DNA of 63,922 nt, filler included, from Deltaproteobacteria bacterium (GTDB lineage: Bacteria; JAUYMQ01), in assembly GCA_030698575.1 (NCBI GenBank). It is 7 parts of 7 records of this genome, joined end to end, with 100 filler letters (N's around TTAATTAATTAA, not from the genome) between each part and the next. Parts side by side here need not be neighbours in the genome. Positions count along the whole stretch, not along the records: positions 49,039 to 54,246 come from JAUYMQ010000350.1; 6 more parts are not named here. One strand, given 5' to 3'. Position 1 is the stretch's first letter. Each line of letters starts with the position of its first letter. Made by a program: the position numbers and the translations under genes. Positions 49,039-54,246 of the stretch are shown in pieces. Under the pieces are notes generated by a model. That model saw only the letters and a list, made by a program, of their open reading frames with translations. It had not been told where the DNA came from and did no database searches.

Positions 49039-49039
49039 G

Positions 49040-52000
49040 GGGACCGCGTCGTCGACGCTGGTGCGGAACGCCCCGGGGCACATCACGAACCGGACCGATT
49101 TTCGGGGGGTGCAGACGACCTGGGCCAATCACGACGTGGACGGAAGCCCGGGCACGGTGACCGAGGCGGTGGGCGAGCCCGAGCAGCGGACGACGACGTT
49201 CACGTACCACCCGGAGCTCCACACGGCGCTCTCGATCGTGCGCCCCAGCGCTCTGCCCGGCGGCACGCAGAAGGTCGCGATCTTCGACTACCAGAAGCCC
49301 GCATCGGGCCCGCCGCCTGACCCGCCGCTGAACCCGCCCGCGGACTTGGACCCAGCGACGTTCAACATTCCTGGGACGAACAACACAAACTTCGACCGCG
49401 TGGTGCACCGGGTGATCGAGAGTGGCTGGACACGGGATGCGGCGGGCACCCCGCTACGCGTGGCTTACGTCTCGCATTTTAGCTACGACGGCTTTGGGCG
49501 TGTGACCAGCATCGATGGGCCACGGGACAATACCGGGCCGGCGGGACCCGATGTGACGACGTTTGCCTACTACGCCGACAACGCGGCGCAGGGCAACAAG
49601 CGCGGGCAGTTGCAGACGGTCACGAACGCGGCTTCGCAGGTAACGGCCTTCAACGACTACGACGCCATGGGAAACGCGCTGTCGGTGACGGACCCCAACG
49701 GCCTCACGACGACCTTCACGTATGACGCGGGCAATCGGGTAAGGACCATCACGCAGGTGGGGGCCGGCGTCGATGGCGGTGGGCAGCCCATCGACCTCGT
49801 GACAACGTACGTCTACGAGGCGAACGGGAACCTCGACTACATCGCGCTCCCGCGGGGCAACTTCATCAACTACCAGTTTGACGGGGCCGATCGGCTCAGC
49901 TCCATCACGCGGACGGCGACCGAGCCCACGAGCCCCTCCGACACGCCGGCCGGGGAGACAATCCGGTACAGCTACGACAGCGAGGGAAACCGGACGCGCG
50001 AGGAGGTGGCGCCGGGGGTCTCCGCGCAAGAAGTCCGCTTCACCGACTTCGAGTACGACGCCCTGAACCGGCTCGAAAAGGTCTACAACCCGGTCTTCAC
50101 GAGCGACCCCGTGACCGACGCCGTCTTCCGGCGATCTACGTATGACGCCAACGGCAACCGCAAGGCCTTGGACCTGGAACAAGTCCAGGGGATGACCTCC
50201 ACGACGCTCCGCCACACGGCCTTCGCCTTTGATCCCCTGAACCGGCTGAAAGACGTAACCCAGGACGACGGCTCGCCTTCGGGGGTCCTGACCGCCTACG
50301 CCTACGACGTGCAGGACAACCTTCGAACCCTCACCGACGGCAACAACCACGACACGGACTACGGGACGGATGATTTCGGCCGCCAGGTCGAAGCGGTCTC
50401 GCCCGACACGGGGACGGCCCGGTTCGAGTACGACGAGGCCGGAAATCTGGTGGAGAAGGACCAGAACGGCCTCGTCACCGAGTACACCTACGACGCCCTG
50501 AACCGCCTGGCCCTCGTGCACTTTCCTTCTGATTCCTCGGAGGACCTTGCCTACACCTACGACACCCACGCCGACGCGCCGCCGAAGGAGAACGGCGTCG
50601 GGCGCCTCGTGCGGATCGAGGATGCCTCGGGGAAGACCTACTTCTCGTACGACAAGCGGGGAAACGTGGCCCTGGAGGAACGGCAGCAGGGCGGCGTGAC
50701 GCTCACAACGAGCTACGCCTGGGACCCGAACGGGAACCTGCAGAGCCTGACCTACCCCTCGGGGCGGAAGCTCACCTACAGCTACGCCCTCGCGAACGAC
50801 CAGCCCCAGACCGTGGCCATGAACCACCAGGGGCAGAACCGGACCCTGGCCTTCGGGATTGCCTTCGAGGCCTTCGGCCCCTTGGCCTCGCTCCAGTACG
50901 GAAACGGCCTGGTGGAGACCCGGACCTACGATGTGGCAGGCCAGCTCGATGGCCTGAGTGTGGCCCCCAATACAGGCCCCGCCGTGCTCTCGCTGGACTA
51001 CACCTTCGACGAGACGGGCAACATCTCCGGCATCGTCGACACGCAGGGTTCCGAGAAGAACAAGAGCTACATCTACGATCGTCTGGACCGCCTCGACACG
51101 GCGACCGTCGGAGATCTCGGGGATTTCGACTACGACTACGACCCCGTGGGGAACCGAACCCGGGAGGACCATGACGGGGCGGTCACGACCTATACGATCG
51201 AGGCCACGAACAACCAGATCGACACCCTCTCCGGGGCCACCACGGCGACCTTCGGCTATGACACCCATGGCAACACGACCACGGACGGGACGCTGACTTT
51301 CGCGTACCACCCGACGCATCAGTTGAAGCAGGTCCAGGAGCCGGGCATGGCGGTGCTGGGAACCTACCAGTACGACGGCCAGTCGCGGCGGACGGCCAAG
51401 ACCGTGCAGGGGCTGACGCGGCTCTTCGCCTACGACACGGGCGCGCAGATGCTGGGCGAGTATGACGCTGCGGGGAACGTGCTGAAGGAGTACGCCTACC
51501 TGGGGACGCAGCGGCTGGTGATGGTGGACCACGACCGGGACGATGAGGGCATCCGGGACGAGGTGGACAACTGCTCGGTCGTCCAGAACCCGGACCAGGC
51601 GGACGGGGACTCGGATCTTCTGGGGGATCTGTGCGATGCGGCCCCCGGAAATCCCGACCGGGACGGGGACGGGCTTCTGGATGGGGAAGAAGATGCCGAT
51701 AAGGATGGCCAGGTGAGCGCGGGAGAGACCGACCCCGACAACCCGGACACGGATGGGGACACGTTCAGTGATGGCGTTGAGGTGGCGGCGGGGACGGACC
51801 CGCTGGACCCGAATTCCTACCCGGGCGCGCCGTCCGCGATTCCAGCCCTCTCCGTCATGGGCGTGGTGATCTTCCTGGTTCTCTTTGCCGCGGGGCGGTT
51901 CTGGGCCCTCCGGCGGCGGTGGTCGAAGGTGGGGCGGGGCATGGATCTCATGGTGCTGGCGCTGGGCCTCACCCTCATGGCCCCGGAGGGGGTGACCCCG

Positions 52001-52945
52001 CAGGGCGGAGGTACGCCGGAGCGGGTGTACTACATTCACACGGACCACCTCGGAACGGCGCTGAAGCTGACCGATGCCAATCAGCAGGTGGCTTGGGATG
52101 CCCGAGCCGAGGCCTTCGGAAAGACGACGGTCACGGCCACGAACACGGTGTTCAACCTCCGCTTCCCGGGCCAGTACTATGATGCGGAGACGGGGCTGAC
52201 CCACAATGGCTTCCGGACGTATTCGTCCCAGCTTGGCGCTTACCTGCAGGCCGACCCGATTGGCGACGCTCTTACAGCAGCGACCGGGGTGACGGGTCTT
52301 CACTACGGGTACGCCGATGCCTCACCCACCGGGGTGATCGACCCCCTGGGGCTCGATGGGATTGCGCAGGGGGCATATGACTATTGGGAGGCCGTCGGGG
52401 TTGCGGGGGCAAGCCAGGGCGGGGTGCGCGGCACGGCGCAGATGGCCGCCGCCGCGTTCGCGCAGGCATCGATCGATTTCTTCCTGGCGCGGTGGATTGA
52501 ATCGGAGGCTGGGCTTGCCGGCTATGCCTACGGGCAACAGTGCTACGGGGAAGCGCTGAAGCACGGCGGCTACGCGGCGGGAGGCATTGCCCTTTCTTCG
52601 GGTGCCATCGGGTATGTCGTCCCCAAGATTCCCGGACTGTTTTCGAGAGCCGCAAGGGTGGGATCCCGCGTCGATCCTACACGGCTTAGCCATATTTTCC
52701 GCGATGCTCCAGGGCATGTGAACCCGTCGACGGTTGCGTCTCGCGAGCGGTTCCTTCGGCTATTCGAAGACGTAGCGTCGAATCCTCTAAACCGGCGTCC
52801 AGACTTCCCGCTACCGAAGGAGGCCGTGGAGGCGGGTGTTGAATCGTTCACGAAAACGTACCGAAGCGGGAAACAAATATGGGTGCTAACCCGGGATGGA
52901 AAGATCATCAACGCTGGCGTCAACCCAGGGGGTGCGATCCGATGA
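49040..52945 (+). CDS. RHS/YD-repeat polymorphic toxin (5' truncated) with inserted TSP3 repeats and membrane hairpin
   Basis: Many YD repeats, core motifs YYIHTDHLGT, NLRFPGQYYDAETGL, ADPIG and IDPLGL, then a C-terminal extension of about 196 aa. Confidence 0.93.
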   Translation, partial: GTASSTLVRNAPGHITNRTDFRGVQTTWANHDVDGSPGTVTEAVGEPEQRTTTFTYHPELHTALSIVRPSALPGGTQKVAIFDYQKPASGPPPDPPLNPPADLDPATFNIPGTNNTNFDRVVHRVIESGWTRDAAGTPLRVAYVSHFSYDGFGRVTSIDGPRDNTGPAGPDVTTFAYYADNAAQGNKRGQLQTVTNAASQVTAFNDYDAMGNALSVTDPNGLTTTFTYDAGNRVRTITQVGAGVDGGGQPIDLVTTYVYEANGNLDYIALPRGNFINYQFDGADRLSSITRTATEPTSPSDTPAGETIRYSYDSEGNRTREEVAPGVSAQEVRFTDFEYDALNRLEKVYNPVFTSDPVTDAVFRRSTYDANGNRKALDLEQVQGMTSTTLRHTAFAFDPLNRLKDVTQDDGSPSGVLTAYAYDVQDNLRTLTDGNNHDTDYGTDDFGRQVEAVSPDTGTARFEYDEAGNLVEKDQNGLVTEYTYDALNRLALVHFPSDSSEDLAYTYDTHADAPPKENGVGRLVRIEDASGKTYFSYDKRGNVALEERQQGGVTLTTSYAWDPNGNLQSLTYPSGRKLTYSYALANDQPQTVAMNHQGQNRTLAFGIAFEAFGPLASLQYGNGLVETRTYDVAGQLDGLSVAPNTGPAVLSLDYTFDETGNISGIVDTQGSEKNKSYIYDRLDRLDTATVGDLGDFDYDYDPVGNRTREDHDGAVTTYTIEATNNQIDTLSGATTATFGYDTHGNTTTDGTLTFAYHPTHQLKQVQEPGMAVLGTYQYDGQSRRTAKTVQGLTRLFAYDTGAQMLGEYDAAGNVLKEYAYLGTQRLVMVDHDRDDEGIRDEVDNCSVVQNPDQADGDSDLLGDLCDAAPGNPDRDGDGLLDGEEDADKDGQVSAGETDPDNPDTDGDTFSDGVEVAAGTDPLDPNSYPGAPSAIPALSVMGVVIFLVLFAAGRFWALRRRWSKVGRGMDLMVLALGLTLMAPEGVTPQGGGTPERVYYIHTDHLGTALKLTDANQQVAWDARAEAFGKTTVTATNTVFNLRFPGQYYDAETGLTHNGFRTYSSQLGAYLQADPIGDALTAATGVTGLHYGYADASPTGVIDPLGLDGIAQGAYDYWEAVGVAGASQGGVRGTAQMAAAAFAQASIDFFLARWIESEAGLAGYAYGQQCYGEALKHGGYAAGGIALSSGAIGYVVPKIPGLFSRAARVGSRVDPTRLSHIFRDAPGHVNPSTVASRERFLRLFEDVASNPLNRRPDFPLPKEAVEAGVESFTKTYRSGKQIWVLTRDGKIINAGVNPGGAIR

Positions 52946-53460
52946 GCGCATTGGCGAACGCCCTGGCACTCGATACAGCGCAAGACCTCCCTGCTGCAGC
53001 TCGGGAATACGAGCGGGCGGTCAGGGACGTAGGGGCGACATTGGAAACGTATTTGAATCTGGCGGTTCTCTATTTCGTACTCGTGGATCCTGGGGAGGCC
53101 AGCACGCGAGGATTGTCCGCTGACTTCGTGAATGCGGCATGGCGACGAGCAACTGAGCTGCTCGAAGAAGCTTCTGACCGTTTTGGTTCGAACTCCGAGA
53201 TCGAGTTCTGGAAGAGATACTTCCGCTTCGTTGTTGTCGGGGATGCGTTTCTTCCAGAGGAGTGCGAAGAGCTTGCAAAAAGTGGAGGCTCGCTCGTCCC
53301 TTACTTCTTCCTTTCTTCCGCTTGTGATGATAACCGATATTGTGAGCAGACGGAGGTACTTCGCGAACAAGTCCGTGCCCGCGAGACGGCTAGACAGCGA
53401 TACGTTTATGATATGCTGCAAAAGGCGCGAGGTCGATCTCGCCAGAGGTCGAAGTCATGA
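52942..53460 (+). CDS. Putative cognate immunity protein (TPR-like helical)
   Basis: ATGA overlap with the RHS stop, lower GC, and a helical AAAREYE...YLNLAVLYF segment. Confidence 0.75.
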   Translation: MSALANALALDTAQDLPAAAREYERAVRDVGATLETYLNLAVLYFVLVDPGEASTRGLSADFVNAAWRRATELLEEASDRFGSNSEIEFWKRYFRFVVVGDAFLPEECEELAKSGGSLVPYFFLSSACDDNRYCEQTEVLREQVRARETARQRYVYDMLQKARGRSRQRSKS

Positions 53461-53570
53461 TCCTGGTCTGACATAGACCCTTTCCTCATCCTTCTCCGCC
53501 GAGCCGAAGGCCCGCTGCATCCGCGCACGCCAATCGGGCCTTGGGCCGACGTGGTCCTCCGCTGCTTCCG

Positions 53571-54246
53571 TGTCCAGCTCAAAAACTCTATCTGCCCACT
53601 TTTGGAACAGGATCTTGAGACCCGGACATGCGGAGTGGCTCGGTTCAGTGCCTGGCCTTCGGTATGGGAATCGCGTGCATAGGGTGATCGGGTGGGCGGA
53701 CGTATCCGACCAAGCGATACGAGGCAATCGGCTGGTAGGACCTCAGGCCGCGCGCCCGTACCGGTGATGAAGGCCGCCCACCTGGGGGATGGCGATGACG
53801 CGTCCCCGGGACGGCGGCTCTATGTTCCTGGGAACGGGGGCGTTCCTCTGGAGCGAGATGTGAGGGCGCGCCCGATCGTAATAATGGAGGTAGCTCTTGA
53901 GAACCCTGCGAAGGTGATTCTCGCCGAACACGATGACGTGGTCCAGACACTCCCGCCGGATGGAACCGATCACCCTTTCCACGAATGGATTTTGCCAGGG
54001 CGACTTCCGGCTCGTGATGATCTCCCGAATGCCCATGTTCTGGAGCCGTCGGCGGAACCAATCCCCGTAGATACCGTCCCGATCCCGAACGAGGAACCTG
54101 GGGATCGGCTCATCGTCTGGGAACGCCTCGACCATCTGCTGGGCTGTCCACTCGGCCGTGGGATGCTCGGTCACGTTGAAGTGCACGATGCGTCGGCGGT
54201 CGTGGGAAAGGACGAGGAAGCAATACAGGACGCGAAACGTGGCCGT
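53571..54246 (-). mobile_element. IS481/IS3-like insertion sequence, partial
   Basis: Integrase-core transposase plus a probable terminus TGTCCAGCTCAAAAACTCTATCTGC starting with TGT at 53571. The other end is cut by the contig break. Confidence 0.7.
53743..54246 (-). CDS. Integrase-core (rve) DDE transposase, 5' truncated
   Basis: HFNVTEHPTAEWTAQQ, RDRDGIYG, SPWQNPFVERVIGSIRRECLDH, RPHISL, GGLHHRY. Confidence 0.9.
   Translation of the reverse strand, partial: TATFRVLYCFLVLSHDRRRIVHFNVTEHPTAEWTAQQMVEAFPDDEPIPRFLVRDRDGIYGDWFRRRLQNMGIREIITSRKSPWQNPFVERVIGSIRRECLDHVIVFGENHLRRVLKSYLHYYDRARPHISLQRNAPVPRNIEPPSRGRVIAIPQVGGLHHRYGRAA

Follow-up and report, generated by a model that had tools for sequence, protein, structure and literature searches.

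Three routes are known for RHS toxins, namely type VI secretion (by the T6SS), Tc complexes, and Sec export with wall anchoring in Gram-positives. The Rhs effectors of the T6SS and the TcB-TcC proteins (8qjc, 7q97, 4o9x, 4igl) have a YD cocoon, a core ending in DPxGL and a variable toxin, and the TcB-TcC structure 4igl illustrates that the cocoon can consist of two chains; the WapA-type RHS toxins of Gram-positives have an N-terminal signal peptide, are attached to the surface and do not depend on the T6SS. Here we describe an RHS polymorphic-toxin gene of a Deltaproteobacteria bacterium (assembly GCA_030698575.1) in which an insert built like a C-terminal sorting tail stands within the chain, directly before the RHS core. 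The gene lies in a window of 63,922 nucleotides (the whole stretch of DNA that was analysed), on the contig at positions 49039-54246, which is flanked by N spacers and equals contig C613 (5208 nt) of the source genome (G000). Its family shares cocoon, core, variable toxin and fold with the T6SS effectors and TcB-TcC, but it carries a Sec signal peptide, its genome yielded no TssC, and a 164-aa hairpin insert precedes the core. With WapA it shares the signal peptide and, probably, the independence of the T6SS, and surface attachment is proposed for it as well; unlike WapA, its host is diderm (Omp85 was found in G000), and attachment would use an internal exosortase-type signal, not wall-binding repeats.

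Several described sorting systems resemble the insert. The IPTL-CTERM/exosortase H (XrtH) system (TIGR04174/TIGR04177) shares with it an [IV]P[AT]L motif, one transmembrane (TM) helix, an Arg cluster, thrombospondin type 3 (TSP3) repeats in front and the presence of XrtH in the genome, whereas the signal of the window is internal, has a further hydrophobic segment and then the RHS core behind it, and is not matched by TIGR04174. The midcut-by-XrtH family (NF033207), whose genes are typically found next to XrtH, implies by its name an XrtH site in mid-protein, but it is modelled at 175 positions and does not describe giant RHS proteins. MYXO-CTERM tails also consist of a motif, a TM helix and an Arg-rich cytoplasmic end and, according to PMC11980579, are cut by a dedicated myxosortase and sorted to the surface for display; the motif of the window lacks their Cys and is of the [IV]P[AT]L class, and Cys motifs occur in three other RHS proteins treated below (P0181, P0264 and G002:C75). 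PMC8671808 ascribes an IPTL-CTERM domain, along with a predicted signal peptide, to the S-layer protein of Methylomirabilis lanthanidiphila. In the literature searched, which lay outside the subscription journals, the accessible parts of the matches listed held no experimental work on exosortase H and, by title, none that treats dockerin-type inserts in Rhs/YD-repeat proteins; on the same footing no literature linking exosortases to Rhs proteins was found, and the match for polymorphic toxins together with PEP-CTERM concerned SitA toxins.

The RHS gene and its insert

The window protein is an RHS repeat protein both by its YD/RHS repeats (RHS_repeat PF05593, 11 stretches, E 8.4e-48) and by its RHS core (RHS PF03527 at aa 989-1023, 47.1 bits; Rhs_assc_core TIGR03696 at aa 1017-1098, with 57.9 bits where 32.5 is the cut-off; DPLGL in the translation as the DPxGL end of the core). 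The first listed start is at 49061, from which the translation comprises 1294 aa, and the stop codon lies at 52943-52945; since the frame is already open at the contig edge, the gene is 5'-truncated by the contig end. Its parts are as follows.

49039..52945, plus strand: RHS polymorphic-toxin gene (open reading frame and translation, Pfam, NCBIfam, AlphaFold2 model)
51485..51529, plus strand: last YD-type strand, KEYAYLGTQRLVMVD (translation, paralogue alignment, model strand 717-723 with pLDDT > 90)
51530..51817, plus strand: TSP3 repeats, acidic and of the calcium-binding type, the first part of the insert (TSP3_bac match)
51818..51853, plus strand: putative sorting-signal motif region, YPGAPSAIPALS (IPALS itself at 51839-51853)
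51854..51919, plus strand: predicted TM helix (TM1), VMGVVIFLVLFAAGRFWAL, at 51854-51910, and RRR cluster at 51911-51919
51920..51982, plus strand: basic loop WSKVGRG at 51920-51940, and second hydrophobic segment, MDLMVLALGLTLMA, of signal-peptide-like length at 51941-51982
51983..52021, plus strand: conserved linker with a QGG motif, PEGVTPQGGGTPE, preceding the start of the core
52022..52354, plus strand: RHS-associated core, from RVYYIHTDHLGT to DPLGL (PF03527, TIGR03696, model strands 888-955 with pLDDT 81-94)
52355..52942, plus strand: C-terminal variable toxin domain (the C-terminus varies among homologues)

An earlier note, made from the DNA alone, had described an in-frame insert of about 164 aa, placed after the final YD strand and before the core, and the translation of 51530-52021, which comes to 164 aa, agrees with it residue for residue; in ordinary RHS proteins of other phyla only about 10-25 residues separate these two elements. 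The TSP3 repeats that the note had named were recovered by the bacterial TSP3_bac model (PF18884; 33.4 bits on the whole protein, 35.7 bits in 2 stretches on the insert, cut-off 25), the eukaryote-type TSP_3 model (PF02412) stayed at 15.5 bits, below its cut-off of 25, and the dockerin-like EF-hand PF00404 gave no match in the window insert at E <= 10. The proposed TM helix also holds on hydrophobicity, TM1 accounting for the sole 19-residue window (aa 926-944) of the 1294-aa protein to reach a Kyte-Doolittle value of at least 1.6, with a value of 2.58. The second hydrophobic segment is shorter (a stretch of about 13 residues, 1.83 over 15 residues), and 341 residues lie between the basic cluster and the C-terminus of the protein.

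The source genome is a metagenome-assembled genome of 653 contigs (91.6% complete), and such fragmentation, together with a multi-copy gene family whose contig graphs branch at 51204 in both sequencing runs compared, could point to two genes joined through misassembly of the repeats, or to a gene in decay. We compared the window with Logan contigs (not raw reads) of two groundwater samples of one study, X1 and X2. One X1 contig of 1196 nt spans 51472-52400 with both insert junctions and zero differences (X1 is possibly the source sample), and an X2 contig bridges the 3' junction (51926-52189); the X2 contigs leave 51528-51609, with the 5' junction, uncovered, which indicates nothing either way. 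Moreover, the reading frame is open all through, and the same order of parts recurs in diverged sequence on independent contigs and in independent metagenomes. The branching at 51204, where contigs run off into other sequence in both runs, and the assembly breaks at this gene family are explicable by a second copy sharing the upstream repeat. The insert is confirmed as real and an assembly artefact is contradicted; a chimera or decaying gene deserves hardly any credence.

The structure was predicted by AlphaFold2 (AF2) on an alignment of 42 rows for residues 101-1294 of the window protein (model residue + 100 = protein residue). In the model the RHS shell (21-725) has mostly a pLDDT (the per-residue confidence of the prediction) > 90 and the core (888-965) a pLDDT of 81-94, part of the TSP3 region reaches 69-88, and the toxin domain is unmodelled. 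Foldseek matched the model to solved Rhs, TcB-TcC and teneurin cocoons with probability 1.0, including the two-chain YenB/YenC2 structure 4igl. As shell and core are both modelled with confidence, the insert is predicted to sit between two adjacent strands of an otherwise complete cocoon.

Paralogues and homologues

The same arrangement recurs at five or more further loci of G000; the hairpin stands before the core in RHS genes on other contigs (C121, C233, C151/C127 and C555), among which C121 is a full-length paralogue of 1811 aa. Homologues were collected in two ways, from 1.84 billion representative proteins with a profile and from 5.8 billion with a word-based search; the matches of the former were dominated by TSP3-rich proteins, and those in a single stretch over the full span were used. 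About 13 metagenome proteins with the same architecture and different C-terminal toxins were obtained in this way (P0021, P0030, P0054, P0089, P0134, P0153-P0157, P0159 and P0160), so that the homologues with the same insert called for by the note do exist; P0158, which had no core motif by the pattern used, was left out of the set.

Between the window gene and C121, identity is 89% in the TSP3 repeats, 92% in the motif region (11/12 residues), 31% in the stretch from TM1 through RRR to the second segment and 81% in the linker. In the 31% stretch only hydrophobic character and charge are retained, and such drift is as expected of membrane segments. Seventeen hairpin sequences were tabulated. 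The [IV]P[AT][LIT] motif is present in 16 of them, the exception being C555, which begins within TM1 at a contig edge; the second hydrophobic segment is found in all 17, and QGG is kept in the 12 close-family sequences that extend to the core. On the other hand of the sampling, RHS proteins of the TSP3 and IPAL form were not found in the two sister genomes of the phylum (G001 and G002) with the queries used, and the hairpin was absent in 12/12 RHS loci read from a scan of species-representative genomes (74 distinct loci).

In addition, an orphan core-toxin cassette was observed on another contig of G000 (C178, G000:C178:829-1050), whose likeness to the window gene starts just past the second hydrophobic segment; upstream of it neither TSP3 repeats nor a hairpin was found in any plus-strand frame, and its interpretation as a frameshifted copy of the RHS gene was rejected.

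Likeness to C-terminal sorting tails

In our collection the phylum is represented by three genomes (G000, G001 and G002). A profile of the insert, searched against these three, retrieved 15 non-RHS proteins in which TSP3 repeats precede an [IV]P[AT]L motif, with a TM helix and then a basic cluster behind it, and in 15/15 the module is C-terminal, the protein ending 0-25 residues past the basic cluster. Two G000 proteins pass the IPTL_CTERM model TIGR04174 (cut-off 20.5), C520 (IPALS, 23.0 bits) and C234 (IPTLS, 22.7 bits), so genuine tails of this type occur in the genome of the window. To avoid circularity, only the sister genomes G001 and G002 supplied the 10 tails for a lineage profile, which was then run on all 37,929 open reading frames (ORFs) of G000. 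It gave 14 matches of at least 11.2 bits, which were 11 C-terminal tails and 3 internal sites, and all 3 internal sites were in RHS proteins (the window gene on C613, 19.7 bits, rank 7 of 37,929; C233, 17.9 bits; C151, 16.2 bits). Further, the match of the window protein to midcut_by_XrtH covers the motif, TM1, the loop and the second segment (profile positions 29-82 of 175), and no member of that family above its cut-off was present in 401 diverse genomes.

The note had assigned the segment to the IPTL-CTERM sorting-signal pattern. The three-part build (IPALS, TM helix, RRR) is present as described, with the second segment behind it; the extreme C-terminal position of IPTL-CTERM is not what is found here, and as the curated TIGR04174 model gives no match, we did not file the segment as an IPTL-CTERM member. 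Comparison within the lineage nevertheless gives good support to reading the insert as a sorting-signal hairpin.

Exosortases of the genomes

An exosortase, on which the proposal of the note also depended, is present in G000: contig C634 carries an XrtH gene of 188 aa (TIGR04177, 110.7 bits, cut-off 86). The XrtH-like genes of the sisters score 110.1 bits (G001) and 70.2 bits (G002) against the same cut-off, and the background rate of XrtH-like genes among diverse genomes is 21/401 at E <= 1e-12. G000 also encodes another exosortase, larger and with EpsI as its partner, to which a separate class of tails, [IV]PEP, belongs; these number about 20, and not one is at an RHS locus. The note had further drawn on a TIGR03790-like gene on another contig; that link was dropped and carries no weight, the match being 33.3 bits against a cut-off of 67 over profile positions 1-91 of 316 (G000:C614:5273-5569, on the next contig).

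In the XrtH region of C634 (L002, G000:C634:1-2323), a gene for a thioredoxin-like lipoprotein (Rcas_1661 family, at 102 bits below the cut-off of 190) lies before XrtH, and after XrtH comes a membrane-protein ORF that has no family match and is cut by the contig end. Two proteins with [IV]PEP-type tails lie 5-7 kb from XrtH on the same contig.

Export, topology and the proposed mechanism

The full-length paralogue C121 begins with an N-terminal Sec signal peptide and has no PAAR-type start, and Sec-type signal peptides also begin the homologues P0153, P0156, P0160 and P0134; the window copy lacks its N-terminus, and the evidence for Sec export of the family comes from these relatives. TssC (PF05943) was not found in the 91.6%-complete G000, and the features of a T6SS Rhs effector (a PAAR/VgrG-linked N-terminus together with a T6SS in the genome) were not found either. 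The Sec signal peptide, the missing PAAR-type start and the missing TssC make a route other than the T6SS reasonable, as the note had supposed, and the host is taken as diderm because Omp85 was found. The tabulated hairpins have a strongly basic loop behind TM1, with flanks that are acidic or neutral. Basic loops face the cytoplasm according to the positive-inside rule, so the shell side and the core side would both be periplasmic and the loop cytoplasmic.

We lean, with somewhat better than even confidence, towards a Sec-exported RHS toxin of a diderm that carries an internal signal of the exosortase H class followed by a signal-peptide-like segment, the two forming a membrane hairpin that is cut by XrtH. 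The N-terminal signal peptide would carry the shell of about 1450 aa over the inner membrane until TM1 acts as a stop-transfer segment, with the Arg-rich loop staying in the cytoplasm; the second segment would then resume translocation, so that the core and the toxin would also reach the periplasm. There the cocoon would close round the toxin while the hairpin holds the chain to the membrane. The IPALS motif would be cut by XrtH, as is thought for C-terminal tails of the same kind, and the second segment may be removed by signal peptidase or left behind. The capsule would finally depart in the form of two chains, which the cocoon keeps together, and reach the cell surface like other XrtH substrates. 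AxA-like sites, as for signal peptidase, follow the second segment in C233, C151, C555, P0089 and G002:C75.

Several observations weigh against this mechanism. TIGR04174 gave no match on the RHS sites at E <= 10, either in an hmmscan of the window segment or in the six-frame search of the genome, and the C121 paralogue did not reach E <= 10 with the lineage profile. The midcut_by_XrtH model gave 23.1 bits on the whole window protein and 28.7 bits on a 90-aa piece, below its cut-off of 45, and 13-16 bits on the other RHS paralogues against 11-13 for unrelated membrane proteins. In the AF2 model, helices lie on the hydrophobic stretches (834-849 for TM1, 857-867 for the second segment) at a pLDDT < 50. 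For the window copy and the rest of its close family, the end of the second segment is [AST]-P, a canonical AxA being absent, and the conserved QGG follows. The XrtH gene (C634, 7.6 kb) and the RHS gene (C613, 5.2 kb) are on different contigs of a fragmented assembly, the co-presence of this RHS form with XrtH was assessed in G000 only, and that XrtH is specific for IPTL-type tails is presumed from the naming in TIGRFAMs/NCBIfam.

The lack of a TIGR04174 score at the site and of a canonical signal-peptidase site past the second segment in the close family would also suit a permanent, uncleaved hairpin, in which the helices anchor a periplasmic capsule to the inner membrane of the producer, IPALS is a relic and XrtH is inactive on internal sites; moreover, according to PMC11980579, the sorting enzymes tested so far all act on C-terminal tails. 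However, a relic would hardly be expected to keep its motif region at 92% between paralogues while the membrane segments fell to 31%, or its [IV]P[AT][LIT] in 16/17 sequences, and signals built alike are also met at internal positions in other genomes with XrtH. Further, a capsule stuck on the producer's inner membrane would be without an evident path to its target. We therefore regard the uncleaved hairpin as rather unlikely, and continue with the XrtH-cut hairpin.

Other inserts at the same site and other internal signals

At the same site, about 14 RHS proteins that are less closely related, some of them from cultured Methylomonas, have TSP3 repeats, dockerin-like EF-hand repeats or both, without a TM hairpin, so the insertion site tolerates soluble modules. 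Examples of the dockerin type are P0185 (Methylomonas rapida), P0203 (M. methanica), P0177 and P0189; P0185 and P0203 share with the window protein the insertion point and TSP3-type repeats, with an identity of about 32% across 95% of the query region, but they have PF00404 repeats and are without TM hairpin, sorting motif and basic cluster. Such proteins would favour a looped-out adhesion or attachment module in the window gene as well, that is, a decoration of the cocoon with no membrane passage, whose helices pack on protein or enter a target membrane. This is quite improbable. In the window protein no stretch is more hydrophobic than TM1, and RRR and a basic loop come directly behind it; the module of the insert equals the genuine membrane-anchored C-terminal tails of the lineage, and a chain that Sec exports and that has a stop-transfer segment of this kind is expected to stay in the membrane.

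Hairpins with another motif were also found at this RHS site. G002:C75 (L136), P0181 and P0264 have a Cys-containing motif, a TM helix, a basic cluster, a second TM helix and an AxA-like site, and no TSP3 repeats. By one fixed rule, which missed P0089, two hydrophobic segments with a basic loop were detected in 11/126 RHS proteins with a core motif that the searches had yielded. In addition, non-RHS proteins of two XrtH-bearing genomes have, within long frames, an internal IPTL-type motif with TM helix, basic cluster and second hydrophobic segment. The recurrence of hairpins of differing motif at the same RHS site makes a functional role likelier than an accident of one genome. Tentatively, and with clearly less confidence than for the window family itself, we propose that in several unrelated lineages the RHS capsule may be made as a single precursor in which the shell ends in a sorting signal (of the XrtH class or of the Cys classes of G002:C75, P0181 and P0264) and a signal peptide stands at the head of the core-toxin part, and that excision of the hairpin may hand a two-chain capsule to the surface.

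Some side observations concern these proteins. The C-terminal end of P0264 is a Tlde1 domain, and the non-RHS internal signals at L137 (G344:C9:99413-99712) and L139 (G387:C23:114036-114197) are followed by further domains. P0104 (1964 aa) is TSP3-rich and has an internal Cys-containing tail (TM helix and basic cluster), a signal-peptide-like segment and an OmpA-type part, apparently another layout of two secreted proteins in one frame.

The toxin domain and neighbouring genes

The toxin domain of the window gave no Pfam or NCBIfam match and no meaningful sequence match in the PDB, and a search of the Atlas provided leads only (MafB, EndoU and RNase A-like; 0.88-0.91). Two further features lie downstream on the contig.

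52942..53460, plus strand: 172-aa ORF in ATGA overlap with the stop codon of the RHS gene; by its position, a candidate for the immunity gene
53746..54246, minus strand: insertion sequence (IS) integrase fragment (rve_3, 55.4 bits), cut by the contig end

In Pfam the 172-aa ORF has weak TPR-type matches, all below cut-off. A full relative of the integrase, of 341 aa, is located upstream of the C121 RHS paralogue (rve_3; L011:2425-3450, minus strand), and the C121 gene is followed by a serine-recombinase-like ORF. As relatives of the rve_3 integrase flank both the window gene and C121, these RHS copies lie in mobile-element surroundings.

Implications for RHS toxins and exosortase H

A sorting tail of the C-terminal type in the middle of an RHS toxin points to an undescribed mode of export. 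An internal sorting signal coupled with a restart signal would be a concrete answer to the question of how RHS proteins with signal peptides are built and displayed in diderms; it also suggests that a chain with two membrane crossings could be closed into a cocoon in the periplasm, and the RHS family of the window would offer a natural substrate for the study of exosortase H. If hairpin excision does operate in several lineages, it would mean a delivery of polymorphic toxins that is independent of the T6SS, and enzymes of the exosortase family would act at internal sites of giant proteins.

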